Position numbers and translations under genes: made by a program. Positions 1,120-47,584 of a stretch of 64,000 bases of DNA are shown piece after piece. Each line of letters begins with the position of its first letter. Position 1 is the stretch's first letter. The DNA is from Blasia pusilla (Eukaryota): NCBI GenBank assembly GCA_050084515.1, contig CM114271.1:22630001-22694000 (forward strand). Direction: 5' to 3'. The notes under the pieces are model-generated. The model was not told the DNA's origin. It saw only the letters and a program-made list of their open reading frames with translations, and did not search any database.

Positions 1120-1410
1120 GTGATCCCCCCTCTTGATGTGGTTCCCACGGGACGATGGATGTGTCCGAGATGTGTATAGGGTAGTAGGTCATGTCAGAGA
1201 GATGTGATATTTTCTATCTGGAGTTGGGGGGGATCCAACTGCCAACTAGGGGGGCGGTTGTGTGATCTCCATGTATATGTATGAGTTGATTTTTGTACAT
1301 GTGTGGATCGACCCGTGTGAGGGAAGATCGGTGTTGTGTGGTGTAGATGTGATCAGCGATGTATATTATGTAGCGATAGGTATGCGCACGACACCTATGA
1401 CATATCCACG
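1120..1410 (+). mobile_element. 3' end remnant of the MTase-Gypsy family (PHD tail, polypurine tract, downstream terminal sequence)
   Basis: About 1126-1179 translates PPLDVVPTGRWMCPRCV*, matching PPITIPRGGWMCPRCT* at the end of ORF 11389-11613. CCAACTAGGGGGGCGG near 1242 matches about 11787. Downstream GTAGCGATAGGTATGCGCACGACAC resembles 11915-11930 and 12590-12615. Confidence 0.75.
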
Positions 1411-2560: not shown

Positions 2561-3739
2561 CGTGCCTAATTTCTCGTTTCTTAATCCATACCACGTAAAG
2601 ATTCTATTCGTAGATAGATATTGGTTTACTCGTTATCTAGTCTATCACTTTGGAGAGGTATTCATGAATCACATCATGCAATTATCAACTCTGATGATAT
2701 TTCCTATTGTCACGTATAAAAGGACTTGGGATTGTATCTTTTTACGTCCTTATTTAGTAATCTATGGATTTAAATATGCTTGCTCGAGTAGGGTTCAACG
2801 CTAGTTGTGCCATTTTTCTTATGTATAAGCGTATAATAGTTTAGAGAGACTTCATGGTTGGGAATATGGGGGTTAGATGTTATGAATAAGTGATCGTCTT
2901 GGCACTATCATTTTTTACTCCTATTGTGAGAGAATGGAGAGTGTATATAGTGATTCTATACTAGGAAAATTATTTGAGAATTCAATCTTGCATCAACTAC
3001 TATTGTAACTTAAAGGTTTGGCTTTTCTTGAAGAAATCTCTTGACACGACAACGTGGTTTTTTTATAGAGGAGGATATGCCGTTGAGTGCCGCTTCCCAT
3101 TCTTGAGTATCATGCCATTTGTAGTCGTTTCGTGCTTATTTGAGTATCTTCAGTACCAGATGCATATAACTTGTTGATTGGAGGAATTTTCTTCATGACC
3201 AAGTTGGGGTTGAGTATGCAGTTGTTGAGGAGAAACACCGATATTTCTTCAGGTTATCCATTCTAGTCTTTTGGCCTTCACACGTGAGGGAATTCCAGGT
3301 ATAGGGTAGTTATTGGAGATATTAGGATTTTGTGCGGATACTGAGAGCATCATTGACATGTGTGTTAGGGGACATAGACCTGTCTGGGATATACAAAGTT
3401 GAGGGTATATTTTCAATGAGAGGATAGGACAATAGTTGATTTTCCGCACCACGTCGCTTATTGCCACACAATACATGTCTCAATGGAGGTTGAGTGCCGC
3501 ATGTTTAGTCTAAGTGATTGAGGGATTACTCGCCAGATTAAGAGTGATCGGGTGAGAAGGGCACAAGGGTCATCACACCGTCATTTCGAGACTTTGAGAG
3601 GCAAGATGGTGGACTTGAGAGTACCTCTAGAGGATTCACGAGGAGTGCCGCGAGGTTTCAAGGATCATCGTGTGAGGGGCTATCTCCACCTCTTTCGGTA
3701 GTGTACTGACGAAAGAGAGGATATAGATGATTTTTTAAT

Positions 3740-5100
3740 ACATCACCTTACACATTGAGTGGTCATACTACCTGGGCGATGGTGGGCCAAGGTTAAGGAC
3801 AACATAGATTTTTGGGAGGCGTGGATACAATAGAGTTGCACGACTTTATCATAGAGTTTAGGAGTTGGTGCGACTCCAAGAGGACTAGGAATTCTAGAGA
3901 GTTCAACTCGATCACAACATGAAACAAAATGTCCTAGCACTTACACGAGACATCCTTGGATGATTACCTTGAGTTTTCCCAAAGGTATGCATATGAGATT
4001 AAGGCATGGAGACTCTACTATGATCCATATTACGTGTCATGGACTGAGTCATTTCCAGATGACAAGGAGGAGCTAGGAGAGGCTATTTTCTCTGCCACTG
4101 GTAAGATTTTGGGAGGGATTAGTCAGATTGGAGCAATTGCATTGTCTTGTAGGGTTTTTCCTAGGTTGAACCCCATGGTTGAGTTCTTAAGGAACTAGCA
4201 AGGGGTTTGGACTGAGAAGTTGCGGAGCATCCATGATTTCCATAGGCACATGTGAGAGAGTTTGTGTGAGGCATGTACTCACTTGCATTGGTTGATTAGT
4301 ATTCCTTAGAGGATGATAGAGGCCTAGATTGTCTAGACATGGTACATTATGTTGGAATGAGACCTACGGAGATGGGTGAGGGATGCGATACTTCACCTAC
4401 GTTGAGAGATGTTTTTGAGATGTCGGAGTGCATTGAGCATAACATGGTTGAGGAGAGTGTAGTAGCCATGAGTCACACGAACAAGCAGTCACAATTTTGT
4501 GCATCATCAATGCAACGATGTGGATTTTGGGAGAGTGTGGCACCACCAGCTCAAGGAGGTTATCGTGAGCATATGCCATATAGACCTATGTCATTATATG
4601 CAGCCCAGCAACAGCCGCCATGACTTATTTGTTGGGCTAGTGGTGGAGCCCGTTGCTAGAAGAATTGAACCCGTCAACATAATGGACGTGTGCCGCAGCT
4701 TGGAGGAGGAGATGGGCCCGCATCGGAGTCTACCAGTGTGACCATTATCAGTGGTATGGTCATAGCATAGCAGCCAACCAAAAAAGCTCGGCGTAATGGC
4801 CGGACCAATTTGATTTTTTTCGAAAGCATGCGCTTATATTTCCTCTTATATCCTGAGTTGCGAGCGGACCGAGGGCTAGAGAGGGCACCACAAGGAGTTG
4901 GCGGTGAGCATGGACCTAGAGGTCATGCGCGAGGTGGTCCTGTGGGGGGAAAAGGAGTTGGATTTTCCCAAGGGGTTGGTGGATATGCCGGTGGAGGAGG
5001 TAGAGGTCCACCACCTACACGTGTCGAGGGAGACACAGGGCATGAGGCTGGGGTGGCTATTCAAATAGAGCAATTTTGTTAGTAGATTATCGCGATGGCA
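3740..5100 (+). pseudogene. Gag remnant of copy A
   Basis: ORF pieces MDDYLEFSQRYAYEIKAWRLYYDP and SPTLRDVFEMSECIEHNM match copies B and C. Gly/Arg-rich tail. Confidence 0.75.
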
Positions 5101-5399
5101 TTGCAATTTCCTGATATCGGATCAGTGGTATTGACGTCTCATGGAGCACTAGAGAATGTTCTGGGGACGGCCACTGCCATGTATCCCATCCCATGGTTTT
5201 TTGCTTTCGATGTTACAACGTTGGGAGGTATGCCCGCCGAGCTTTTTTGATTGGCTGCTATGCTATGTGAGCATGGATTTTGTGTTAGTGCCTCATATTC
5301 AGAGGTGGTTGGAGAGGAGGTAGTGGACTTGCCCTTGGAGCCTATGCTTGGGCTGTCCACCTCAGATTCATGGCAAGTTGCGGTTGCTAGGATGGTGGA

Positions 5400-7130
5400 G
5401 ATGCTCGCTAGACTCGCGATAGAGTGTACCATGGTTTCTCTTTGTGTTTTATTAGATAACTTGAGTGAGGTTTTTCATTTGGTGAGTCAAGGAGGTAGAG
5501 TGTTTTTTCCGCAACGCATCTTGTTGGATTCAAGAGCGCAACATCCCTCATGTTAGGGTAAGGGGCATTTACAAGAATGTGCTTGTCGAGGGCTGATATT
5601 GAGCATTTCCCATTCAGAATATAGACATCCTTGGATGGAGCAAGAACGACATAATTTATCATCCAACATGAGGTTGTGGGAAGGATTCTCCCAAGACATC
5701 TGTCAGATGAGTCCAAGCCGAAGCGATAGTAACCGATACTGAGTCCTCTAACGTCTTGGATGGAGGATCCATGTTGTATCCGATGGGGTTTCCCCTAGAT
5801 TATTGGGAAGAGTCAACATTGTGATATACACCTTTCTTAAGTTGTAGAGATTTTAGATGAGTTTAGATACCTCTCGACAATAATTCCCTTAGTTAGAAGA
5901 TATTTCACTTAGGTTTAAAAGTAGGGAATACCTATTAGGAAAGGAGGATAAAATAGAAGCTATTTGAAACTAGGAACATTCCATTATGGGACCCCTTAAA
6001 TCATTAGGAATTAATTATAAGTTAGAGGGATCACGAGTTTACTTAAGAGTTCCTACTTTTGACAGTTACATGACAGTTTTTAAGGAAGATATTAATCCGG
6101 TGAACGCTGCAGAAGTTAAACAGTTAGTCACTTCGGGAAGAAGTTAAACAGAATTACAATTAAGAGTATAAGCTTTCGACCCCTTGAAACCCTGATCCAG
6201 AAGTCAAAAAAAGTGTCTTTTTCCCCTTAGCAGGACGGGGAGCTCTTGTGATAGAAGACTCTCACCTTTAGAGATCGACCATGGAAGAAAGAAACTGACC
6301 CATTCCATAGAATTAATGCTCGTCGCTCTTCTTGGAATGAAGAATTATTACTCGTTGAACTCCAGAATCAGTCTCATTTATTACTGATGGCTTCGAGGAT
6401 GGAATTAGAGACAGACAACAATATCTTATGACAGGAGTAAAGAGCAGATGTATTAATTGAGAAACATTTCTCCCTTCATCTCTGTTTCGAATGAGTTTGG
6501 CAGATAGAGAGATCATATGTCTCACGGCAGTCTCTTCTTCTGATAAAGAATACTTATGTACTCCCCTGTCTCTGGAATTTAGCATTTCCTTCGATTTAAT
6601 TCTATATGAGGAGAAGTTCAACTCCTTATAACTAAAATCATGTTTAGATATACACGTTAAACACTCAGTCTGGTGCTGTTGTTAAATTCACCTTATGCTT
6701 TGTTGATGCATAGACTACACATAATCAACTCAAAATCTTTAAATATAATTTCTAATCCATATCCTATTCTGAAAAGGAACGAATTCAGACCAATTGATAC
6801 TTCTTATTGAACTCTCAATAGACCGCAGTTACTACAAACATCCTATAGACCAAGATGATAGTTTGGTGATGGACAACTTAGCTCATTACCTGTTTGATTC
6901 ACGGGTGGAGTGATTGAGCGACAACCAAGAGAGATGGCAACGTTAGCAACATTTCTCACTTGGCTTATTGATTTGATCAAGGGGCATATCCATGCAAGGG
7001 ACACACCCGTGCCAGATACTTCTATGGAGAGGGGTGTTATGATAGCCGCATCAATCCATGGAGGAGAGGTGCCGCTGTGGGGCTCTAGTGAGAATCTTCG
7101 ACGCTTGGCTGATGAGCACGTGCAGATACT
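5400..7130 (+). pseudogene. Aspartic protease region of copy A, split by a solo LTR
   Basis: VLLDNLSEVFHLVSQGGRVFFPQRILLDSRAQ (DSG-type site decayed to DSR). Homology resumes after 6841. Confidence 0.75.
5820..6836. mobile_element. Solo LTR (1017 bp) of an unrelated retrotransposon
   Basis: TGT...ACA termini with a perfect 5-bp TSD AACAT (5815-5819 and 6837-6841). Removing it restores alignment to copy C 58470-58500. Confidence 0.9.
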
Positions 7131-7219
7131 ATAGAGCAAGATGTTTGCACTAGAGCATGATGGGTCAAAAGAACTAGAGGTAACCACAATTGCTACTATA
7201 ACACCCTTCGACACTACAC

Positions 7220-8160
7220 CAATTGTGTGGCGTATCCCAGAGGAGGGTATCCAGGTGTTGGATCTCTTTGGAGGGAGCAACATTGGGTTGGCTCTTATTT
7301 TGCAAGCAGGAGTGCATGTGCAATAGTATCTATATATGGATCTTGATGAGGTTGTGAGGTGCATCTCACTCCAACATGTGGTGCAGTTACGCCTCCGTTT
7401 TCCCGACTTATTGTCTATGTTGGTTATATAGGGGTACTAGAGTTCCCTATCAAGGGATATTTCTTTGTTGGGGGCGCAAGACTTGGAGCGAGTAGGGACC
7501 ATTGATTTGGTTACTTCTGGTTGGTCATATAAGGGCGAGTTGAGTGTTGGACGAGGTAGCGGGTTGGTGGACACTCGGTCCATGTTGTTTAGGGAGATGA
7601 TTAGGATTTTGCAACACTTGCAAGAACATCACTCTTCTTCTTTAGCGTATATTGGAGACTGTACTGATCTTGGGTACTTTAGGTCATAGGTGGTGATGAG
7701 TGCACATTAAGTGCTTGCTTGGACTGGCCGAGTAATGTTTTTGGATGCGATGAGTGTAGATTCATGAGCACATAGCCCACATTTATGGTGGATCAACTTG
7801 GTGCCATATAAGGTGTTACGGAGGGCGTATGCAAGACTAGATTAGCCCTCCCATTTGTTGGTCGATTCTATTTTGGATCATGGTCATCAATCACAGGTAG
7901 TGAGACACAATGATCGACCTCCGTTGATTGTGATCATTAGGATTTGTGAGTTTTTCTGCTTCCTATGTGTATAAGGAGGCCGTTTTTGGCTTGGTTTGGG
8001 AGGATCATGCACATCGGTTGGTGGAGCCTAACATTGATGAGCGAGAGCGGATGATGGGATATCCCACAGGAGTGGCGGCTCTACCGTCACTATCATAGGC
8101 ATCCCAACGGCATGTCCTCAGTCAGGCAATGGACCTAAACTGCTTGACATGGTTCATCAT
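7220..8160 (+). pseudogene. C5 cytosine DNA methyltransferase domain (Dnmt3-like) of copy A, degenerate
   Basis: Motif I IQVLDLFGG. Motif IV decayed to DLVTSGWSYKG. Motif VIII region LWWIN. Motif IX DERERMMGYP near 8035-8065. Motif X SQAMDLNCLTW near 8120-8152. Confidence 0.85.
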
Positions 8161-8506
8161 CTTAGAAGAAGTTGAGCAACCTTGGATGAGGTTGTGACAG
8201 ATCATAGCTATTGTGTTGATGAGCCCCATGCTTATTGAGATGGTTCATGCAATGGCTAAGGGCGAGATCCAAGGAGATCGACATATCAGAGGTGATCAAG
8301 AGAGATACCCTTGGACTTCTTGGGATGTGTTGCAAGTACGTCGTAAGATGGCAGCCACATCATTGAGCGTGGTTTATGGTCCTGCATACGGAGGAGATAA
8401 GAGTTTGGAGTTTCCTTTCGAGGAGAAATTGAGTTTTGTTGATCGAGATGGGGTTGCACCATAAGAACCACGGATACTCGCGCCTAAGAGTCTTAGAGTA
8501 GTCAGG

Positions 8507-9250
8507 ATGGAGACTTGGGAGCCAAACATGGGCCCTAATTTGACAAGAGGAGAGCGGCGAAGGATATATCAGTTCATTAGGAATCATAGGAGTTATTTTG
8601 CATTTAGCATGCATGATTTGGGTACGCTCAAGGGTCTAGGGATCCACATTGAGTTGTCTATCGACACGCCGATCTTCCGACAACCCTACATGTACAATGA
8701 GATGGAGAGGGCCCTGATTTAGGGCAGGAGCCAGGACTTGGTTGGAGCAAGACTAGTGGAGATATCGCATGAAGAGTATGCATGTGCCACTATTATGCCC
8801 GCCAAGTAGGATGTGCATGGAAATTGGACAGATAGACAGATGTGTGGAGACTATCGACCTATCAATCAGCAGACGAAGTACGATAGCTATGCCATACTCT
8901 CTCCTAAGGAGTTGTTTCATGCTCTTGGGCATAAGGTCTTTAGTTTATTGGATCTTTGAGTTAGATACCATCAATGGCCTATCAGATTGGAGGCGAGATA
9001 CAAGACGATATTTTGGGCCATCGATCCTCATAGGAAGGATTGTTTGTATCAGTGGTGGTTCTTACCATTTGGGTTAAAGAATGCCACGGCAAAGTTTCTG
9101 AGGCTTATGGATAGAATCTTGGCACGTTTTGATTTTGCAAGATGTTACATTGATGGCATTGTAGTCTTTAGCACCATAATTGGGGAGCATGAGCGACATC
9201 TGGAGGAAGTTTTTCGATAATTGCAATTACATGGGTTGAAGCTATATCCA
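8507..9250 (+). pseudogene. Reverse transcriptase remnant of copy A
   Basis: RxMCGDYRPIN, FLPFGLKNA and YIDG (from YIDD). Near 9250 the sequence jumps directly to the end of RNase H (LLLxEYDFQVVHRPG), so RNase H is deleted. Confidence 0.85.
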
Positions 9251-9335
9251 TGCTCTATTGTTGTAGGAGTATGATTTCCAAGTGGTACATCGACCTGGGA
9301 CGCTCAACTAGGATGTAGATAGATTGAGTTATAAC

Positions 9336-9656
9336 CAAGGTTGCATGTGGTAAAAGTCCATGTCCGTGGACATGTAATTTGTCGATCCTATGGAAGGACT
9401 TATCCATATGGGCCCCACCTTTCCCTTATTTCTCATTTGCTTTACTTGCCTTTGTGTTCCATACTTGGGGGAGTATGGAACACAAACACATTTTTTCCTC
9501 CCTCCTCCCTCATTGCTCCTTTCATCCTTGCCTTGCCTTCCATCATGGACTAAAAGTGTGGAACCCACCTCTTGGAACCCATGTCCATGGACATATCCAA
9601 ACTTATTTGTCCATGTCCATTCTAAGGAAGGATTTGTCCGTTTTTGTGCAACCATG
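9336..9656 (+). mobile_element. hAT-type MITE (321 bp)
   Basis: TIRs CAAGGTTGCA / TGCAACCATG. 8-bp TSD GTTATAAC / GTCGTAAC, differing only at a CpG. Interrupts the Gypsy pol. Confidence 0.88.
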
Positions 9657-9879
9657 GTCGTAACCGATGCCCGAGTCAACGAGATGCAACCGAAACTCAA
9701 TGGCATGGGCATAATGATGAGGAGTTCCTGGATGGCACATATCAGCCTACTGGGGCTTGTTGGCCATGGAGAGTTACAATGTTGAGACTTCGAAGGCGAG
9801 ATCTGATGGAGAGTCCTTGGATCCAAAGGTCGGTGAATAGGCGACACGTGGTCGAGATATCCATGAGGATGGAATAGTC

Positions 9880-11390
9880 TTGGAGTACCTGTGTACAAGC
9901 AACATCGCAAGCATAGTGGATGCTAGAAAGCAGGATTAGATCCTACAATTGGCCATATTTTTTTGGTAGGAGGAAACACATGTATTACAAGTTTGGTAGG
10001 ATGGAAGAGTATGCGTAATACAGAATCCTTCACAAAGAGCACGTTTGGTGCAATATGCCCACGAGGAGTTGGGTCATTTTGGAGTGAAGCGGACGTACAA
10101 CTTGCTCCAGATACACTATTGGTGGCGAGGCATGCAAACTGATGTGGAGCAGTTTGTTGTCATGTGCATGGTGTATGACTGGATTTGAGCACCGTTTAAT
10201 GCTCTGAATCCACATTTGCATCCACTACCAATCATAGATTTAGGTTAAAGATGGAATTTGGATTTTGGAGGACCTTTACCTTTGACGGAGCACCATACTT
10301 GTTTTGTGTTGGTGATGGTCAAGCATTTCTTGAAGTTGATAGAGTTGTTGGCATTCAAGGTTGCATGTGGCCAAAGTCCGTGTTCGTGGACATGTCCATT
10401 TCCGTGGACTTATGTTGGTCTTATGGAAGAACTTGTCCGTATGGGCCCCACCTTTCCCTTCTTTCTCATTACCCTCACTTGCCTTCATGTTCCATACTCC
10501 CCATTTCTTCCTCTCTCCACCTCCACTCCCTCCTACCTCATTGCTCCTCTCATCCTTGCCTTGCCTTCCATCATGTACTAAAATTATGGGTCCCACCTCT
10601 CGGAATCCATGTCCACACTTGTTCCTCCATGTCTGTCCTAAGGAAGGACTTGTCCATTTTTTTGCAACCATGTTGGCAGTTCCTGACAAAGGGATTGAGG
10701 GAGTAGCGTACACCTTCCTAGATTGAGTGTTGAGTCATTATGGCGTACCAGTTGAGGCGTTAACAAACCAAGATATAAAGTTTCGCGAGGAGTTTTTGGC
10801 CTTGTATGATTAGGCGTTGATTGAGCATCGCACCACTTCACGAGATGATCTTGAGGCGGATGGACTAGCAAAGAGGGTTGTGCAGATGGAGAAGAGAAGT
10901 TTACATATGTGTGGTTTCACCTAGGAGATTGGGATCGCCAGTTGCCATGGTTGGCAATCGGTTACAAATTTTGTAGGCAAATATCTTGAGCATCTTTCTC
11001 ACCACTTTTGTTGCTTTATGCTTGATTTACTTGCGGCTATTTGTCAAGATGTTGGTGAGGTGTGAACCTAGATGACCTTCATATATGGATGCGGGCATAT
11101 TCTCACACATTTAGAGGGCTGAGTTGTTTTAGAGAGTGATGCCCATGACATTTGAGAACTTGGCAATTGTGGTGCATCGAGATACATTGAGGTATGAGAT
11201 TATGCAGGGAGGTGTTTATCAATCGACTATTCAGAGGCATCAGGGAGGCTATGTCTACTTACAATAGATGGCACCTTCGACATTGGATGTGACCAAAATG
11301 CGCACTATTTTGAGAGCGCGTGATGTTTTCCCTTTTGATGTTCTCTTATTGGAGGGATGCAAAGGTAAGTGGTATTTGAAAGGACCGTGT
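9880..11390 (+). pseudogene. Integrase remnant of copy A
   Basis: AHEELGHFG zinc-binding region, DFGGPLP, HRTTSRDDLEADG and LPWLA. Colinear with the copy B integrase. Confidence 0.8.
10356..10672 (+). mobile_element. hAT-type MITE (317 bp)
   Basis: TIRs CAAGGTTGCA / TGCAACCATG. 8-bp TSD TTGGCATT / TTGGCAGT. Inserted in the integrase. Confidence 0.9.
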
Positions 11391-11469
11391 GCATAATTGT
11401 GCGCCATGTCACCTTCCTAACATTGACAAGACACTTTATCCGAGCTTGGCAGTAGTTCTTGCAAGCTTG

Positions 11470-11613
11470 CGTTGTGTGTTGTGTGATTCTGCCCGTGGTG
11501 CAACCATTATGCTAGTTTGTGATGGATGTTCGAGAGCATGCCATATGGCATGCTTGATGCCACCTCCCATTACAATTCCTCGAGGCGGATGGATGTGCCC
11601 CAGATGTACATAA
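11470..11613 (+). pseudogene. PHD finger (C4HC3) at the C-terminus of the copy A polyprotein
   Basis: CVLC...MLVCDGCSRACHMACLMPP...WMCPRC*, with all eight ligands and the conserved Trp. Confidence 0.88.
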
Positions 11614-11940
11614 AGTAGGTACTATGTAGTTATAGATTATCACTTGTGTTTGTGTCATGGATGATAAGAAGGCAACTAACGATGGGGCCACATAAGCACT
11701 AGGCCTTTTTTTATCTTACCGTCCTAGAGATGTATGTCATGGTAGGTAGGGATAGATGGCTATCTCGAGTTAAACGGACCTAACCACCAACTAGGGGGCG
11801 ATTGGAGATATTTTCGTTCATGATCTTCTTGATGTTTGGATGGGATCTTGTGTGTGTGTTAGCATGGGATCTTGTGTGTGTGTGTGTCTATTCGGTGGAA
11901 ACGATGTATGGTGTGTAGCGATGTGTATGGGTACAAAAGT

Positions 11941-12371
11941 TGTCACGTATTTTAGGATAGATCGGTAAGATCTAGTAGAGCTCCTTCAAGGATAGTGGAG
12001 GACAGTCTTGAGAGGTCACAAGGTGACTTCTTGAGACTATAGGTATTTTGAGAGAGCAGGTTTTCCCTTCATTTCGGCTCATTTGGAGCTATATAGATAA
12101 ACTTACTATTTTGTGTCAGTTACTATTTTCAATATCATTGAATTTCTACTTTAGGAAGTAATCCTTGACCTCCTACATTAGATCAAGAGCCAAGGAGGTG
12201 ACTTGCGAGCATAGGTTACCGTGGAGAGAGCTTGGGAGAAGGAAGGGGCTTTGAAACTCATTCTCTCGTTGTTGAACCTCTTGGCATGAGGCGGCCGATC
12301 CGTAGATATGGTCCTCCTTGCCTTGTTTCTGTAACCCAAACCTCTCATTATAAGAATGAGTTTGGTTTGAC

Positions 12372-12459
<88 letters not shown>

Positions 12460-12505
12460 TGTGCACCATGGAGAGGCATTGTGTTAAGAGAGACACTTGA
12501 TTTAT
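11941..12505 (+). repeat. LTR-like repeat homologous to 54131-54684, containing (GA)n
   Basis: Starts TGTCAC. TAGGATAGATCGGTAAGATCTAGTAGAGC and CCTCCTACATTAGATCAAGAGCCAAGGAGG are shared with 54147-54400. Confidence 0.7.
12374..12457 (+). repeat. (GA)n microsatellite, about 42 units
   Basis: Directly visible. Confidence 0.97.
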
Positions 12506-12649
12506 TGGAGATATTTTGGTACGTGATCGTCTTGATATTTGGATTTAGCATGGGATCTTATGTATGTTCGGTAACATCGATATATGTTGTGTAGCAATGT
12601 GTATGCACACGACATCCTTTATGAGGTGTCTACATAGAGAAGAATGGAA

Positions 12650-13399
12650 TTTGGAGGCAAATTAGTTATATTTGAAGGAGATCTTTGTCAATTATCTCCA
12701 ATATGTAATCATAGAGCGAGTGACTTTTGTAGAACTTGTCATTTAAGTTCCTCCACATTTATGTCAAATGCACAAATATCTATGAGCTAACAATGCCTAT
12801 GAGACATTGTGAAGATCCAGAGTATCTTAAATTCTTGAATTCAGTAAGGAATATTACACCTACAACGCCAGAAATACTAGCATGCCTTGGTAACTATTTT
12901 GTGTGAGAGAATAGGGCAATAGATTTCATTCACTCAGATACATCCATAGTTTGTACTCATTGTGAAGATGTGAATATTTTTAACGTTTTAGCTCTTAGAT
13001 GTTTGGTGATGCATTTATAATATAAGTTAGAGTAAAATCAAATGCACCTTCAAGTCCATAATTCAATTCTAGGATTTAAGATGAATGATTCCACTAGCTA
13101 CCATTTATAGCAATACATTGTATTGTGATACTAACTGCCAAATTAATTTGAAAGTCCAAGCATCCAATGGATCATTAGCCATTGTTTTCGATGATTTATG
13201 ATGATGATGAAGAACTTGTGACAATTGTAGTTCACATATTATCAAGTAGTAAGTTAATAAACATCACAAGATCTAAAATTGCAACTCTTAAGTACAACTC
13301 GGATAGAAAATATATTAAGAGAACATTCCTACTAGTACTTAGTTATGCCATGACAAGACATAAAAGCCAAGGAGCCACTATAACAGGGCATTTTTGTTA
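12650..13399 (+). pseudogene. PIF1-like SF1B helicase fragment
   Basis: KRTFLLVLSYAMTRHKSQGATITG (motif V). Colinear with the minus-strand copy at 45600-46420. Cut at 13400 by a CACTA terminus. Confidence 0.75.
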
Positions 13400-13739
13400 C
13401 ACTAGAAGAAAAACTTTGTTTTATGACTAGGATTTATGACTTGTCTCAATCATATATCACATTCACGACTAAGAATGACTCGTGACTCGTTGAATCACAA
13501 AAGCCAAGTCATAGATTTGTAATGACTAGGGCAACTACAATAGTTTGCAGACATGGAAGTATTGTCCTCCCTATATGACTCAATGGTTGAGTCATATAGG
13601 CAGGACTACCACGTCACGTTAGTGACATGGCAAAACACTATGGTGACGTATAAACCTTGGGTCTTTGACATGTCAACATAAGATGTGGACAAAGGAAAAA
13701 ACATTCAAGTGCATGGCCTAATTGTTATTTTTTTCTTAT

Positions 13740-14075
13740 CTTTATTGGAATAAATTTGCCCATTTCCAATTGCATCCTTTTCCTAAGAAGTTGTTCAATG
13801 GTTCAACAAACTTAGCAAATGAACAAAAAAAACATCCATAGAACCTAGTCAATCTTAGAAAGCTTGAAAGTTATTCTAGATTTTCATGTGGTGCCAATTT
13901 TTTGATGATCTCTCTCTTATCCTTTATGAATTCTATGCCTTTCTCACTAATATGATGATCTAGATAATCTACTTCAATCTTTCCAAACTCATACTTTGAT
14001 AACTTTGCATATAGTTTATTTTTTGTAAGGACTTTCAGAACTTGACCTAAGTGTTTCATGTGTTCTTGTAAATTA
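13740..14075 (-). pseudogene. Gypsy RT C-terminal fragment (chromovirus-like)
   Basis: HLGQVLKVLTKNKLYAKLSKYEFGKIEVDYLDH. Similar to 24850-25115. Confidence 0.75.
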
Positions 14076-14869
14076 CCACCATATTCTCAAACATACTTGG
14101 TGTTATTCCTCCCATCAAATCTTCCCAATTTCTTCACGATGTCTTGAGGGCCCTTGTTGATCTTTGCTTTCCCATATTAACTCCATGTTGTTGGCTAAAC
14201 AACATTATCAATATTCGGAGAAGATCTTCACCTTCCTTAATTCCCATCGATGTAGCACAACCCAAAGAAGCCATCTTGATAAAACCTAAACTTGCAAAAA
14301 TAGAATCTATCACCTAAAAGAGCTCTTAGTGGAAGCATCTATTGTCGTGTCGAGAGGCTTTCTTTGAGTAAGGGCGAACCTTCTAATTGCTATAGTCATT
14401 GATGCAAGATAAAAATTTTTCCGTATTCAATATAGAACCATCATATAAACTCCCCATTCGTTAACGGTAGGGATTAAAAGTGGTTGTGTTGAGGCAATCA
14501 CCTCTTTGTAGCACCTAATCCCACATTTCCTAAGTATGAAGTCTCTATAAATTTCTTTTAGCGTTTATACACTAAAAGAAATTTGCACAAGTACCATCGA
14601 AGTTGATGATTGCATGACTTGGTTCATGAATGTCTCTTCAAAGTGGTACACTAGATCATGGTGAACAAACCAATATATATTTACGAAGAGGATCTTTACT
14701 TAGTATAGGTTTGAGAAAGGAAAATCATGTATCACTCATGCTCCACCTTTATCCATATTTAACAAACATCCTCTATCCTCCTCTTTCTCCCAATACAATT
14801 TAAGGTCATAAGAACTTGCTCCTCATATTCCCTCACACTCATGAATGAAAAGTTTCTGAAATTTAATCA

Positions 14870-17800
14870 CGAGTGCCAATATTCCTACTACATTGGATGG
14901 AGACATGGAAGGATCTGATGACTATATTGAGGAAGAAAGAATTGATGATGAGATTCTTCATGAAGGAAGGAGAAAAACACTTACAGCGCTACAATTTGCC
15001 TCTTTTCGACTTCAAAAACGTGTTGGTGCGATGACGATAATCATTTGCTTTGATTTGGGCGTCTTACTCAAGAGTACATGGTTGATTTGTATGCTACAGT
15101 AGAGATGCAACGACTATCTTGGGTTTGATTAAATCAAAAGGAGTTGCAAGCTGAATTATATCAAGATCTAAAGGATATCCTATATTAAAGTGATAGAGAT
15201 AGTGCAAGGTTTGGGAGGCGTATTGTATTGCCTTCTTCTTTTAGTGGAGGCCCACGCCATATGCATCAACTTTATCAAGATTTAATGGCCATTGTGAGGC
15301 ACCATGGGAAACAAGATTACTTTCTAACAATGACGAGCAATCCTAAATGGGAGGAGATCACTTCATCACTATTACTTGGTCAACAACCTACCGATAGACC
15401 ACATTTGATTGTGCGAGTTTTTGAGAGAAAAAAAAGGAGTTATTAAGGCTTATTCTCTAGAAGCACATATTGGGAAGGGTTGTTGGTTGCATTCATGTGG
15501 TTGAATTCCAGAAAAGAGGTCTACCACATGTACATATTTTGATTATTCTTCATCATGAGGATAAGCCACGCTCAACATCTTATTATGATGATATGATATC
15601 TGCTGAGATTCCTAATCCAAACACTCATCCCATACTTCATTCTACTATGGCTCATTGCATGGTTCATGGCCCATGTGGAAAACTTAATCCAAATGCTCCA
15701 TGCATGGATAAGGGAATCAAAAAGTGTACCAAAGGTTATCCTAAGCCTTTTGCAAGCATAACTACGGAGAGTGAGGATGGATATCCGATTTATCGAAGGT
15801 ATGTAATCGAACTTTGCATCTTTTGGATTTTAAAAAATTCCCTAACTTCTGATTTTTTATAAGGTGAAATTATATTAATTTTTTCCTTCATTCTTATGAT
15901 ACAGGCTGGATAATGGAATAAAAGTAATGAAGCGCGATCAAAGTTTGGACAATCGTTGGGTCGTTCCTTACAATCCTTTGTTATGTACTCTCTTTGATTG
16001 TCATATCAATTTGGATATCACGAATACCATTTCATTTGTGAAATATTTATAGAAATATGTATATAAGGGATCCGATGCGATATCATTTAAGGTTTCAAAT
16101 AAGGCAAACACTGGAACGACAAGGGAGGTAATCGATGAAACTTCACATTATCTTGATGCAAGGTAATCATTCTTTTGTGAATTCTTTTTCCATTCCTTCA
16201 ATATGTCTACATTCGAGAACATATCAGACTTCACTAATTTCTTTTCATCATTTTTGTGTATCATATATATAGATACGTTTCTTCCTCTGAGGCATGTTGG
16301 AGATTGTTCAAGTTTAGCTTACATGCGGAAAATCCAAGTATTATAAGGTTGGCAGTTCATCTACCCGAGTTACAAAGTGTTTTCTTCAACGATCACGACA
16401 ATGTTAAGGAGATACTACAAAGAAACAGGGAGACAACTCTTACACAATGGTTTGTAACTAATCAGTTAGATTTGGATGCTCAAAAATATCTATACATCGA
16501 CTTTCCTTCCTATTATCGTTGGAACAAAAAAAAATGGATTCATAGAATTCAAAGGAGAAATGGTTGTGGTCATCCCATTGGTTGCTTATATCTTACTCAC
16601 CCAGGTAAATATGTTTGTAATTTCCATAATGTACTTACAAATTACGTAAATTTTCAAGCGTCCTTTTGATTATTTTCATGTTTCGTATATTAAGCGATTA
16701 CATTCAAGTTTTGATAGGTGAAGGAGAACGACATTGGTTGCGGTTGTTGCTTCATCATGTTCGAGGCGTAACTACGTATGAATACTTGAGAACTGTGCAA
16801 GGAGTGCTATATCCAACATTTAAGGAGGCTGCTATTCAAATAGGGCTTCTTGAGGATGATAGGGAAGTATTCTCATGCTTTCAAGAAGCATCAGAAATCC
16901 GCATAGGTCGTACGCTTCGCCAACTCTTTGCAATTATTCTCGCTTACAACATCCCAACTCAACCTCTTAAACTATGGAGTCAATTTTTGATCCCATTCAT
17001 AGAGGATATCTTATATGAACAACGCGAGGTAATCCCTATTCCTATTTTTATGATAATAATTCTTATTTTTGGATTTTTCTTTTGGACTTACTTCCGTATC
17101 GTTTTCTATATGCAGCAAACAAGGATTTATGATCTTGCTCTAGATGCTTTAATTATGAACACAACATTATTGGATATCCATTACCATTTGCAAGATCAAG
17201 GCAAACGATTATCCGATTTCCTTGATATGCCTCAAGCAGATTTTCAAGCTTCATCTTCATATTCGTATTTGGAAGCAGAAGAGCTCATATATGATCGAGA
17301 TGACTTATATGAGCAAGCTAGGTTAGGAGAGGAAAATTTGAATGATGGACAAAGGTTGATTTGGGATGCTATACAAAATAAACTTGATAGCATTATTGCT
17401 GGTGATATTTCTTCTGGTTCAAAATTGTTCTTCATTGACAAGCCTGGTGGAACAGGAAAAACCTTTTTATACAATCTTCTTCTTGCAAGTGTACGAGGTG
17501 CTAGAGGCATAGCTTTAGCTGTCGCTTCTTCGGGAATAGCTGCTTTGTTGTTAAATGGAGGACGCACTACGCACTCACGCTTCAAGATTCCAATTAATAC
17601 AGATGAAAACTCCACTTGCAAGTAAGTATGAAACCATTTTATGAATTTGTAACTCTTTTAATATTGTAAAGATAACACTTACCCAACATACTAATATCTT
17701 TTGGTATATTTTTTGTAGTTTACCTGTTAATAGCGAAGTTGCGCGCTTGATTCAAAGGGCCTGGCTTATCATATGGGATGAGGCACCGATGACTAATCGC

Positions 17801-23358: not shown

Positions 23359-25350
23359 TTTGGGGATTTTGAGCAATTTGAAGTTTCTCCTTTGCTTGAA
23401 CCACTTCCTCATGAATTTTCTTGTACAAAGTCCTCTATTGTACGAACCGTGGAAGTGACATTGTCAATGAGACCTTGTTTTGCCAAGTTGATCATTTGTG
23501 GATGCTCTCCATACATAAAAAAAAAACTAACGGTGTTGCTTTAGTGAAAGCGTTGAGAGAGTTGTTGTAAGAAATTCCACCAATGGAAATAGCCAATCCC
23601 AATCCTCTTGCTCCCCAAGAATGAAGGCCCTAAGCATATCCTCAATTCTATAATTGGCTCATTTTTTGCGCATATATCTTATTTAGGATGGTATGAAGTT
23701 GATATAGCTAGTTGAGCCTTGAAGAGACCGAAAAGAGTGCGCCAAAATAAACTTGTGAATTAAGTTTCAAGGTCTTATATCAATAGCTTAAATAGTCCAT
23801 GTTATGAAAATACTACCTCTAAATATATCTTAGCCAACTCTCGCGTTGTCACTATCTTCTTAGTGGTCCAAATGTGAATAATTTTACTCAATTTATCCAC
23901 AAACACCACAATGCTATCAAAACTTGTACCGACGTATGGTACTCCACAAATAATATCCATGCTTACATACTCCCATTATTGGCTGGGTATCGAAAGGGTT
24001 GTAGAAACCCTACCTTATGAAGATTTTTGGGCTTATTTTGTTTGCACTTAAGGCAACTATGAACATAAGATTCCACATCTTCCTACATCTTAGGCTAGTA
24101 ATACACTCATCGAAGACTATCCAAAGTCTTCTTAATTCCAATATGGCATGCTATAGTTGTATCATGCACCTCAAATAAAAATTCATTATGGGGTTTTGTG
24201 TTGATCAGAATCCATAATTTATCTTCGTTGACGACTAGATCTCGTATCGTCTTCACCTTTCTCCTACCTTTGGCTGCCAATATCTCTTTATCTTATTTTT
24301 CAGGTGCGAGAAACTCCACCTACCAACTCGGGGGGATTTTCATCTCCGCCATATGATTCATTGTTCACATTTATGTCAAAGCATCTATAGTTTTATGTTT
24401 TCCTTCTAAGTACATATTGGTTACGTTGAATATTTTTCTTCATTCAATCGCACGGATTTGGCCTTTGGACAGCTCATTTTGTAATTCTAAGCACACTAAC
24501 ACTTTATGTTAGTCTCCAGAATAAAGGACTTATCCCCAAGATAGTGATGTGATTTCTTTATGGCCAATACAATTGCAAGCTCCTCCCGCTCCGTGGTGTG
24601 ATACTTTTGTTCCATCAATAGTAGTTTCTTAGAGGAGAAAGAAATTGGATGTCAGCCATCTTTCTATTTTTGTTATAAGATCCCTTCCACAGTTGAACTT
24701 GAAGTATCCATTGACAATTTAATCGATTTAGTTGGATCATAACACTTAAAAATAGGGGCATGTAATAAAGCCTGCTTCAATGCTTTAAATGCCATGTCCT
24801 CTAAAATTTCCCACTTCCATTTGCATTCTTTTCATGATAAGTTAGCCAATGGCTGAACCAATTTGGCAAATAAACCAAAAAAATGCTCATAGAACCCTGT
24901 CAATCCTAAATAGCTTTGAAGTTTTGCTAGATTTTTAGATGGTGCCCACTTTTTGATGACTTCTATCTTATCATTCATGACTTGCATATCTTTTTCACTA
25001 ATAAAATGACTCAGGTGATCTACTTCAATCTTTCCAAACTCACACTTTGTTAACTTTGCATCTAGTTTATGTTCTGTGAGGGCTTTAAGGACTTGACGTA
25101 AGTATTTCTAATGTTCCTATAAACTACCATTATATACTAATATCTCATCAAGGAAGACTATCATTGACTTTTCCAAATATGGACATAAAATATCGTTCAT
25201 GAGATCCATGAAGGTAGGTGGAGCATTGATTAGGCCAAAAGGCATGATTAAATACTCATAACGACCATATCTAGTTCTAAAAGCAATTTTATTGACACCT
25301 TCATCCATAATTCCAACATGGTTGTAGCCACTCCGTAGATCTAACTTTGT
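22420..25350 (-). mobile_element. Chromovirus (Gypsy) pol remnant: RT, RNase H, INT, chromodomain
   Basis: [25 protein letters not shown]...[13 protein letters not shown] region. EFEVEQVLD...YLVPWKGY...EP chromodomain near 22900-23045. Confidence 0.85.
23328..23354. repeat. (TA)n microsatellite
   Basis: Directly visible. Confidence 0.9.
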
Positions 25351-26469
25351 GAAGTATACTTATTTTTTATGGTCTTCTCATTGAATGCTCAATAATCCAC
25401 ATTCGTATTCCTCCATCCTTCTTATTCATAAATAATATGTGGATTGAAGAAAAATACTTATCATCATAGAAGCGTTTAAACTAGTCACTATAGAAGTGTA
25501 GGGATGTATGTATTATGTTTGAAAGACATGGTTGTGTGGGGTTGGTAGCTAGGTTGATCAATAGAATACTATCCAGTACCCATAGTATGATGGAAACCTA
25601 TGGGGACATCCTTGTACCATCCATGGTAGAGTTAAACCTCTACTTCTTGCTAGCCCACCAGAAGATCTTAACCTTGAAATTTGTAATTTGAAGTCTTGAG
25701 TTGAGTCTCAAAGAACCCAACTAGTTGTGTATTATGTGTGTAGGCAACTAGGTAGATGCTAAGCACTAAATGGTTCCAAGTCCCTCGACTCGGATTTGCA
25801 AGTTTCCATTTTTTCCTAAAGCGTACAATTGCAAGTCGCATGCATGATCCTATAAACCAAAATTGCAAGTTTTTTTGGACGCGTTTTAGGTTAAAAATTT
25901 ACGACTCTCCTTAATTACAAGTGGAAAATGGTTGTCAAGACTTGCAAAACTATGTGAACTTGCAAAGTTGCATCAAGATGCAATGGTGTGGCACGAATTG
26001 GATTCACAAACTTATAGTTGCAAAATATCCGCTCTTGAAAAAAAAATGACAAGAAATGGAGTTGCGTTGATATCTCTATCCTTAGTATTCTACATTGATG
26101 ATAGATACTTGTGCTACTTCCAAAATCTCACCATCTTTTCCCAATGAATCCCTCGTTTATCCTAGCTAAAAATACTTACATAACACAAGTTAGTCATTGC
26201 ATAATTAAGACCAAAAATTGTCTTCTACATAGAAATCATATGGCATATTAGTTTATTACCTTCAACAACAAGTTGAATGAAATTCAAACTCTTTCATACT
26301 CTTTCCCCACTCTGCCAAAACAAGAGAAAAATAAGAAATGAATCAAACTCATTCCACTAGATTATCTTTTCCACCTAAAACATCCAGGGAGCTATTGATA
26401 GATCAACAAACTCTCCCCACAAATGGAATTAAGGAAATTGATAGATAGGCAACTTCACTAGACTAGGGC

Positions 26470-26880
26470 GGGGTGGATCCATTCGAGCTTGGTAGACGTT
26501 CCTACTCGCTTAAGTTGTATGTTATGTGGATCTACAAGAGACATAACTGCCATGTTGGTTTGTGAGCGTCGTTCTAGAGGGTGGCATATATTACACTTAA
26601 TTTCCCTTTTTGATGTCAACGTTGTTCCCAGGGGATAATAGATATATCCGAGATATAGAGTAGTTTATTACGCCAGATTAGATGTGGTGAGTGCTATTTG
26701 GACTTAGGAGATCTAATCTCCAGTTATAAGGGAAATTATGTTGTATACACGTGTGAGTGTATTTTATTGTGTAGACAACTTTTCCATCTTGTGTGGAAAT
26801 TCAATGGCTTTTATTGTATGGATATGAATAATGACGTAGACCTCATAGCAATGTGTATGCGCATGAAAATTTTCACATCA
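26470..26880 (+). mobile_element. Highly decayed 3' end (PHD and downstream) of the MTase-Gypsy family
   Basis: Translates VPTRLSCMLCGSTRDITAMLVCERRSRGWH...VVPRG..YPR. Downstream TAGCAATGTGTATGCGCA matches 1370-1390 and 12590-12610. Confidence 0.65.
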
Positions 26881-45589: not shown

Positions 45590-46794
45590 AAGGCTGAAGC
45601 ATACCCAGTATTCGGAGCTTGCTTCTGGTTTTAACACGTGACAACATAACATATGCTAGGTCGTAGGCAAATATAGACTGAATAACTAATAAACATGGCC
45701 AACTATTGTGGATCCGTGATTTTTGTGAGCTATCACGGCATAACCTAAAACTAGAGGAAAGGTCCTTTTAGTGTACTTCTGAGTTGAATGGTACCTCAGT
45801 GTAGAAAAGTTGGTCCTAGTAATTGCAACAGATGCTGTTTGAATCAAGCTTGACAATAATTTTAACTAGGACATTTCCCTCATAAAAAGATCAGATATTG
45901 AACCAATAGAGCCATTTGCTGCTTGCATCTTTAAGTTTACATTCGAAGTCAGCATAACTTTGCAATGCTTAGCAATAAAATTTAGTTGATGGAAAGAAGA
46001 ATCATTGATCCAAGACGTGAATTGAGTAGATGAAGGTGCATCAGTAAGTACATCAACCTTAACAATGGAAGCATCATCAAAGATCCTCCTTAATGCAAGC
46101 AAGTTAAAAATTGATACATCTTTGCACTGCCTACAAATGATTGTTGTATCTGATGATACATAATCAGTTACCTCATTCTCAGAGAGAAAGCAAGGTCCAA
46201 GGCAGTCAAGTATCTGAGATTCAGTTGGTATGGTTGTCTTGATTGATTTCAGAAAAGTACTAAAAGGAGGATCTTTAGAGTGTCGCATAGATGTACTAAT
46301 TTGGTACAATTTAGTAGATGTGAACAAGGGTGAGGAGATGATATAGGAGTTTCTGCAATACGAAAAAGTCCTATGATTGCACATAGGTGGTAATTAACAA
46401 GGATCCCCAACTAGTACTAATAGCTTCCTAGCAAAAGGTTTGGTAACAACACCGTGTGAGACTTCATGCATACGCATAGCTATAACTTGGAGGAGTTTGC
46501 ACGTTAGCATTGAGAACTCGTCAATGAAAAAAACCTCAGCAAATCTAAGTCTAATGTAAGAATATGAAGTAGCATGCATTGCTGGTAGATCACCACGAAT
46601 GAGAATAGCAAATGCTGAATAAACTGTAGTTGCTTGTGAATGGAGACAAATAGTTGCAATACATGTTGTTGCACTTAGTAGCGGAACCAAGACTTGGAAG
46701 ACTTGTACTTGTACATGAATTGTATAAAGAAGGATTTTCCACAACTAGGAGGTCCTGAGAGGAAAGTATGGCTTGCAGCGGGGATAGTTGAGGG
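45590..46794 (-). pseudogene. PIF1-like SF1B helicase pseudogene (cellular-type motifs, no adjacent Rep seen)
   Basis: Walker A HTFLSGPPSCGKS (about 46735-46775), FFIDEFSML, LLVLVGDP, VMLTSNVNLKMQAANGSIG and KRTFPLVLGYAVIAHK. Confidence 0.82.
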
Positions 46795-47344
46795 AGTGGG
46801 ACCTACATTTTCCATGGTTGGCTATGGGTTATCGCTTTAGTCGGCAAGCATCCTTGGCGTCATTTTCACCGTACTTTTTGCTCTTTGGGAGAGAACCAGA
46901 TTTACCTGCAGCGATTTGATGTGACATTGCAAAGGTGTTAGATCTTGATGATCCAGATGTGTGGCTACAAGCATGTTCTCAGAGGGCGAAGGTTTTTCGT
47001 AGAGTTATGCCTATGGCCTTTGAGAACTTAGCTATTGCTCAACATAGAGATACATTGAGGTACGCGACCATTTGGGGAGGAGGTTTTTGTCTAGGGATTA
47101 GGAGGTTTCATCCTGGAGATTATATGTATTTACAACAGGTGGCACCTACGACGCTAGATGTCACTATAGGGCGCACGATCCTACGTGTGTGCAAGGTATT
47201 ATCCACCGGAGTCCTCATGTTGGAGGGATGGGATGGTATGGTTTGGAAGGATCATGTGCTCAATTGTGCACCATATCATCTTCCGAACGTAGACGCGATA
47301 GTGGATTCGAGCTTGGCAGTGGTACCTGTAGGCTTGAGGTGTAT
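46795..47344 (+). mobile_element. Isolated integrase C-terminal fragment of the MTase-Gypsy family
   Basis: EWDLHFPWLAMGYRFSRQASL...MPMAFENLAIAQHRDTLRY...NCAPYHLP...LRCML, cut at the start of the PHD. Flanked by GTTGAGGG at 46787-46794 and 47345-47352. Confidence 0.85.
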
Positions 47345-47584
47345 GTTGAGGGTGGATATACTTGCATGAATGTGTCCACAGAGGAATTGTCAAATGTATG
47401 AGTGATATTCATGACCTCATTAAGTCCCATGCACTTTGAAATTTCAGGATCCAGCTTCATGAAGTTGAGATTCTTGTTAAAGCTACAAGTATACTACAAG
47501 TTGGGCTATCAATTGATTTAACCACCATGTTTTCTGTGCACCTACTATTGAACATGCACCAGAATTATTTCAAGATGCACAAGA

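Follow-up and report, generated by a model that had tools for sequence, protein, structure and literature searches.

Chromoviruses carry a chromodomain at the C-terminus of their integrase, as set out in passages of Novikov 2012 (PMC3350952) and Neumann 2019 (PMC6317226), and PHD fingers on retrotransposons are called widespread in passages of two further papers (PMC6673714; PMC8557442). In Chlamydomonas reinhardtii, the element Gypsy-7a_cRei has a PHD in its Gypsy Gag-Pol, for which a targeting role was proposed; insertion of the Chlamydomonas PHD Gypsy between genes was 2.6 times chance, a bias that may reflect selection according to its authors (Craig 2022, 10.1101/2022.06.16.496473). The text of de Mendoza 2018 (PMC5890265) describes KnitGypsy-Dnmt3 of Klebsormidium nitens, which combines the Gypsy domains with a DNMT3-like domain and DIRS-like repeats in the order A ... 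B A B, and already raises the idea that the DNMT of such elements acts on the element's own cDNA; the word PHD is absent from that text and its text supplements. EpiLTRs, as portrayed in parts of a preprint (10.64898/2026.05.21.726589), are LTR elements with a DAM, a DNMT that is sister to DNMT4 and a chromodomain, and the same parts name streptophyte Gypsy-DNMT3 but not a PHD finger. No test of retrotransposon PHD fingers as the proposed targeting modules was found in the literature searched.

The window analysed here, a 64-kb stretch of Blasia pusilla DNA, contains a Gypsy-type element (copy A) to which an earlier note, made from the sequence alone, had assigned a PHD finger fused to the integrase. 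The note's statement that PHD-bearing integrases occur in some Gypsy lineages of non-seed plants was not borne out as a published description: the term PHD is absent from the parts of Neumann 2019 and Novikov 2012 consulted, and was found in print for a green alga. A published PHD in Selaginella or the Phygy/Selgy lineages was likewise not borne out by the same parts of both papers. The PHD-tipped integrase accompanied by a DNMT is real, conserved and clade-wide. Our preferred reading, to which we give an even chance, is that stop-codon readthrough doses the DNMT against the integrase-PHD, that the protease separates the two, and that the PHD serves as a tether to histone H3 with unmethylated K4 while the DNMT works on cDNA.

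Copy A and its surroundings

Copy A is dead and belongs to a large family of the Ty3/Gypsy type (Table 1). Stops are found throughout, frameshifts disrupt the integrase core/PHD region, two 320-bp insertions are present, most of RNase H is deleted and the Pro-Cys of the methylase is lost. The claim of a complete C4HC3 PHD finger was upheld by a Pfam search (PF00628, E 1.7e-10, above the cut-off), and a six-frame scan of the window found this single complete finger, which is followed by one residue and then a stop codon at 11611-11613 (+). In copy A the PHD frame stays open over no more than 77 aa. Further PHD remnants had been noted at three sites; all three are present, but every one is partial or decayed. 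The block at 46764-47348 (+) continues ORF2 of the adjoining minus-strand copy (~53870-47585), as its inverted 3' block.

Table 1. Features of copy A and of related remnants (positions in the window)
Feature	Position	Strand	Remarks
PHD remnant, last third only (WxCxxC end)	1126..1176	+	
Gag-like region	3139..4764	+	Weak Retrotrans_gag match in another copy, E 0.019; CCHC knuckle in L074
Aspartyl protease region	5162..5815	+	DNA match to copy L023; Pfam matches below cut-off in L074/L075
DNMT3-like C5 cytosine methyltransferase, end of ORF1	7250..8152	+	In copy A stops, catalytic Pro-Cys gone
ORF1/ORF2 junction, in-frame stop	8462..8470	+	Family has TAG + CARYYA readthrough context, decayed in copy A
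Reverse transcriptase with stops	8510..9335	+	Most of RNase H (~600 bp) deleted
Integrase: H2C2 zinc domain, DDE core, beta-strand C-terminal domain	9724..11369	+	Broken by stops, frameshifts, insertion
~320-bp insertion in integrase	10356..10672	.	Absent from other aligned copies
Conserved linker, integrase C-terminal domain to PHD, in PHD frame	11389..11472	+	
C4HC3 PHD finger, C-terminal end of ORF2	11473..11607	+	Cage aromatic missing two residues ahead of His; Cys3 followed by Asp; acidic wall lacking; basic net charge
Repeat B1 of split direct repeats	11801..11938	+	
Repeat A2, starts TGTCACG, expanded GA run	11941..12503	+	
Repeat B2, element 3' end, terminates in CA	12504..12614	+	
Decayed PHD remnant with stops	26471..26653	+	
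Integrase C-terminal part to PHD start, ends after first cysteine	46764..47348	+	Inverted beside minus-strand copy

No 5' repeat A1 belonging to copy A was detected within the window. The second insertion (9336-9656) is 74% alike to the one in the integrase and is also absent from the other aligned copies. This 320-bp repeat, present twice in copy A and once inverted at 1429-1669, directly behind the 1.1-1.4 kb remnant, is probably a small non-autonomous element. An AT-rich stretch of ~1 kb between protease and DNMT (5816-6840) is absent from other copies. Positions 3580-13756, comprising copy A and its 3' flank, recur on contig C9 (2459500-2471600; L048, L049) at 97-98% identity; because the flank recurs along with the element, this is a segmental duplication rather than transposition. 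Elsewhere in the window, an ORF at 16630-17625 (+) encodes a PIF1-like helicase (E 1e-25) and is probably a piece of a Helitron, and RT/RNase H pieces at 13760-14083 and 24508-25353 (-) belong to another retroelement lineage, 25-30% identical to the family. A search of the phage collection gave no match.

Element ends and classification

The family has the layout A1 - Gag-protease-DNMT3-like / putatively leaky TAG / RT-RNaseH-integrase-PHD - B1 A2 B2. The direct repeats are thus split (A ~515 bp, B ~128 bp) instead of forming the two whole LTRs of Ty3/Gypsy elements. B1/B2 were found in 10 of 11 3' ends and A1/A2 in 7 of the 8 copies examined, with identities of 86-97%, and split repeats also occur in the relatives L066, L072, L087 and L104. 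An exact 4-bp target duplication flanks five of seven copies with both ends, and one more with a mismatch (judged by eye), as well as both solo A-B repeats examined. In L033, L036, L042 and others, B1 and A2 are linked by an additional AC, GC or GT, reminiscent of a circle junction. An AG-rich run follows the 5' repeat in two copies, as judged by eye, at the position where a tRNA primer-binding site would lie.

The domain order is protease-RT-RNase H-integrase and the RT is nearest Ty3 (Ty3 Gag-Pol, E 4e-98). No ORF2 scanned had a match to Chromo; each has a PHD instead. The genome also holds 1,636 candidate chromodomain elements, to which the family RT is 30-34% identical, and in the RT tree the family stands apart from nine chromodomain-linked RTs of this genome, which served as the root. 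That tree holds 124 sequences with FastTree supports, weak deep nodes and no named reference lineages.

The integrase-PHD fusion in the family

The proposal that the PHD is a family trait was confirmed by a genome search with the finger, in which all 150 matches scored, from 9,634 candidates, had E<=6e-30, so that at least 150 genome matches exist. Family sequence made up 8.6% of twenty 10-kb stretches at fixed positions, a rough figure from a 200-kb sample. Twelve of the 150 copies, selected because their open frames were long, were fetched; an ORF of 341-533 aa runs into the finger in all twelve, and the four ORFs scanned from this set each contain H2C2, rve and PHD in a single frame. An intact ORF2 was absent from the 150 scored out of 12,485 candidates in this genome, the longest open frame being 786 aa. 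The metagenome relatives L074 and L075 are intact and have a whole RT-RNaseH-INT-PHD ORF of 1,047 aa. Fusion of integrase and PHD therefore does not hold for copy A itself, where frameshifts and stops intervene, but it does hold for other copies and for L074 and L075, where the PHD is in frame with the integrase.

A structure model (mean pLDDT 73) shows a zinc domain, core, long helix and strand bundle, then the finger, which is predicted to be a domain of its own behind the C-terminal strands; the best fold matches of the modelled integrase are the PFV and Ty3 integrases. In the model the PHD thus sits where chromoviruses carry their chromodomain, in keeping with the earlier note.

Sampling on the RT alone gave 80 relatives, clustered at 95%; of the 38 that contained an integrase and sufficient sequence, 35 have a PHD (26 of 29 clusters). 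The figure for integrase homologues, 119 of 120, is biased by the query. Comparison of L074 with L075 gave a dN/dS of 0.04 for the PHD and 0.02 for the integrase core (one pair, with dS 1.6, near saturation), and by these sequences the PHD is under purifying selection in this one unbiased pair. The within-family value for the PHD, 0.19, was set aside because the copies had been picked on PHD likeness. An ESM Atlas cluster of integrase-PHD proteins, those of known taxon being chiefly molluscan, suggests, as no more than a lead (score 0.78), that the fusion also exists elsewhere.

A conserved stop between ORF1 and ORF2

The earlier note placed PHD and methyltransferase in one polyprotein. This description has to be given up, because DNMT and RT are separated by a conserved in-frame stop. 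All ten other fetched copies covering the junction have the stop followed by Gln-Pro, and in several fetched copies the RT frame opens at the same point. The 20-base junction has 1,522 exact matches in the genome with TAG as against 23 with A, C or G first; the stop is therefore the state of the family and not the outcome of decay, and an origin of the TAG from a decayed CAG was ruled out (1,522 TAG, 8 CAG). L074 has a 1,369-aa ORF with protease and DNMT, one TAG, and then the 1,047-aa ORF in the same frame.

Stop readthrough is known from some LTR elements, such as SIRE1, Tca2 and MuLV gag-pol. In the present family the type I signal UAG CAR YYA lies in frame between the two ORFs. Distant relatives have TAG followed by CAACCA, CAACTA, CAATCA or CAGTTA, so that the encoded residues vary and CARYYA is kept. 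A looser, frame-free motif (stop+CAR-YY) was found at the junction in 59 of 75 relatives, with 16 lacking it, compared to 139 of 4,000 random windows; the commonest context in the metagenome relatives is CAACCC (37 of the 59 motif matches), which differs from the consensus by one base and counts against the preferred reading. Folding of the RNA downstream of the stop yielded z values of -1.3 to -2.8 against simple shuffles in four relatives. UAG CAR YYA is the TMV readthrough signal, with about 10% readthrough in vivo according to a passage of PMC2754532, and type I (TMV-type) readthrough is also covered in part of PMC13517186. From the sequence context we infer ribosomal readthrough at the TAG of the family.

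Three RNA runs each placed ~4,500 reads on a 5.6-kb copy at >=85% likeness, with ~ten-fold strandedness (sense), and coverage is unbroken across the stop, the species match of these runs being uncertain. A species label is all that they have in common with weak holders, 6-12% of every run was read, and reads of related families are mixed in; the reads show transcription of the family or its close kin, no more. No RNA run was listed as containing the window's own stretch. At L021:6400-8500, many reads of runs X12-X14 have common loose ends (94-100% agreement), which indicates that one uniform related element is well expressed there.

It is quite improbable, in our view, that the TAG is a true stop, with ORF2 expressed through a subgenomic RNA, an internal start or reinitiation and with DNMT and PHD never in one chain. 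RNA depth does rise ~1.5-fold directly after the stop, as this reading would have it, but 3' bias or related-family reads explain the rise equally well. Gene callers also place Met-started ORFs of 1,031-1,044 aa directly behind the stop. The reading frame, on the other hand, is identical on either side of the stop in L074 and L051, and the context is conserved at the nucleotide level despite the varying residues. Splicing past the stop was rejected, none of the RNA joints listed skipping it, and no pile of molecule starts near the junction was listed. We therefore retain readthrough as the preferred reading. The split is not universal, since some relatives hold the DNMT in one ORF with the RT. 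Where it exists, it explains why the DNMT ORF and the RT-INT-PHD ORF are called as unrelated genes; the Marchantia proteins Mp4g09160 and Mp8g17980, for example, are ORF1 homologues that end after the DNMT, and a Coleochaete protein starts just ahead of the RT.

The DNMT3-like domain and its pairing with the PHD

The family DNMT matches PF00145 (E 1.8e-13), its best solved matches are DNMT3A/B/C (E about 1e-5), and Pro-Cys is intact in eight of ten motif matches at genome loci. Among the RT-picked relatives, a DNMT lies upstream of the RT in 56 of 60 (37/39 clusters), and both domains are present in 28 of 31 (21/23 clusters), which bears out the co-occurrence that the earlier note had proposed to check. 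A DNMT-like domain was found in the same predicted protein in 77 of the 120 integrase homologues: between RNase H and integrase in 51, before the RT in five, and in 21 without an RT motif found. In the RT tree the middle-position type, to which proteins of Chlamydomonas, Pleodorina, Tetrabaena and Haematococcus belong, groups as a single clade nested within the remaining sequences (59 RT sequences, node support 0.99). CHLRE_09g398141v5 of C. reinhardtii (P0059), which we do not equate with Gypsy-7a, combines an integrase-PHD with a middle DNMT whose catalytic motif is degenerate, as it is in P0027, P0034, P0085 and P0105; no Pro-Cys occurs in the stretch examined. Pfam mostly misses the DNMT-like domain in this position of chlorophyte Gypsy polyproteins. 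One member of the family's eukaryotic clade, P0157 (CAA9586175.1), is deposited as an uncultured cyanobacterium, a label that is probably due to contamination of a metagenome bin.

In the ADD module of DNMT3, reader and catalytic domain belong to one mature chain, with the reader immediately on the N-terminal side of the catalytic domain. The analogy that the earlier note drew with this module fails in the family, where the DNMT forms the end of ORF1 and the PHD that of ORF2, ~1,000 residues downstream and beyond the conserved stop. A coupled reader-writer like the ADD and catalytic domain of DNMT3A, by which insertions and their flanks would be methylated at unmethylated H3K4, is accordingly improbable, although the frequent pairing speaks for it, a readthrough product would contain both domains, and the middle-position DNMT lies in the PHD frame. 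Besides the stop and the residues that intervene, the element has a protease of its own, and in the chlorophyte examples named above, whose layout is where such coupling would be most plausible, the relocated DNMT is degenerate at its catalytic motif. PHD and DNMT are thus probably made in different amounts and have separate jobs, as in the preferred reading.

Features of the PHD finger

The solved PHDs nearest to the finger include KDM5 PHD1, BAZ2A/B, PHF21A, CHD4, AIRE, ATXR5 and KMT2C/D. The view of the finger as a candidate reader of the H3K4 state gains from this comparison, the nearest solved relatives being readers of unmethylated H3K4. An aromatic residue at the methyl-K4 cage position was found in none of 23 fingers of this genome and in one of 110 homologous fingers; as the cage aromatic is absent, the finger is by its sequence no K4me3 reader, and this missing cage assigns it to the unmethylated-H3K4 class. 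The Asp after Cys3 is retained in 22 of 23 own fingers and 103 of 110 homologues, and a PxGxW end is conserved in the family; we take these two features to have roles in binding H3 R2 and A1.

Acidic-wall positions were set using an offset from Cys3 that we assume to be that of the BAZ2A residues. The residues used were D1688/E1689 of BAZ2A, where neutralizing the acidic patch weakened H3 binding 17-fold (PMC5415848). None of the 23 fingers of this genome has an acidic residue at these positions, compared to 70 of 110 homologous fingers with one at one of the two, and the own fingers carry a net charge of +3 to +7, where the chlorophyte-type group averages -5. The missing wall and basic charge count against the preferred tether and are what would be expected if the PHD of this branch were no histone reader, instead serving the integrase as a basic appendage for nucleic-acid binding or structure, or binding a non-histone host factor. 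We consider this somewhat unlikely given the retained Asp and PxGxW end, and passages on AIRE indicate that some H3 readers hold an extended tail without a wall (PMC5415848). A complex prediction of the PHD with the H3 tail of this genome scored 0.28 against a mark of 0.34 and was counted neither way. A tether to unmethylated H3K4 remains the reading we prefer, and a role of the PHD in integration targeting is plausible.

The first 100 of the 1,522 junction matches are Poisson-like over 20 Mb of C1 (variance/mean 0.89), with no sign of clustering, which tells against the preferred reading. At least half of the flank was family sequence in 5 of 26 flanks, compared to 16 of 200 random 1-kb pieces, at least three of these flanks being internal sequence misread.

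A model for the family

The preferred reading suggests the following model. Most ribosomes would stop after the DNMT and a minority would read through the TAG, and the DNMT would therefore be made at the level of Gag and the integrase-PHD at a fraction of it. The protease of the element would release the two as separate proteins. The PHD would remain part of the integrase, tethering it to the N-terminus of H3 where K4 lacks methylation, and may thereby bias insertion away from active promoters, as the chromodomain does in chromoviruses. The DNMT would act independently of the PHD, its substrate being the cDNA of the element inside the particle or later. Both may promote quiet insertions, and would do so as two separate proteins rather than as a single reader-writer enzyme.

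A wider conjecture, which we hold only tentatively and think rather unlikely to be right as a whole, is that a split-repeat Ty3/Gypsy clade of chlorophytes, charophytes and bryophytes rebuilt the logic of DNMT3 in two parts. A packaged, abundant DNMT3 would methylate the cDNA and a rare readthrough integrase would dock via its PHD on H3K4-unmethylated nucleosomes, so that copies would land silenced in quiet chromatin; in chlorophytes the DNMT would have moved beside the integrase-PHD, often to decay.

With these findings, the range of Gypsy elements that carry a DNMT3 grows from a single charophyte to include land plants and chlorophytes, and it is seen that such a family can occupy several percent of a genome. 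The readthrough split, if used as proposed, says how writer and integrase are dosed, and separate calling of the DNMT ORFs can inflate counts of host methyltransferases. As the same genome holds many chromodomain elements, a natural comparison of PHD and chromodomain is at hand. As to the pairing of PHD and DNMT3 across green lineages, the readthrough split and the relocated chlorophyte DNMT, the literature searched held no description of the relocation, and its open-licence part none of the pairing in one Gypsy clade or of its readthrough; figures, Repbase, preprint supplements and Craig's thesis may hold PHD annotation.

Comparison with known systems

Like KnitGypsy-Dnmt3, as its text describes it, the family has the Gypsy domain set, a DNMT3-like domain and DIRS-like repeats, but the DNMT of the former is in the Pol ORF with the RT, whereas here a stop separates the two. 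The kinship is one of architecture only, no K. nitens protein being among the homologues found. Gypsy-7a_cRei shares the PHD in a Gypsy polyprotein; it differs in its near-normal LTRs and in having no DNMT listed. The EpiLTRs, in the parts of the preprint cited, similarly unite a DNA methyltransferase and a histone reader in one LTR element, while the domains of the family are a DNMT3-like domain and a PHD. The finger itself resembles BAZ2A/B and KDM5 PHD1 in its C4HC3 fold without a cage tryptophan, and differs from BAZ2A/B in that the acidic wall before the first strand is absent. As in TMV-type readthrough, UAG CAR YYA separates an abundant short product from an extension that bears the polymerase; in the present case the element is a retrotransposon and the signal follows the protease and DNMT. 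With the chromoviruses, finally, the family has in common a histone-reader fold appended behind the integrase, but that fold is a PHD rather than a chromodomain and its RT falls on a separate branch.
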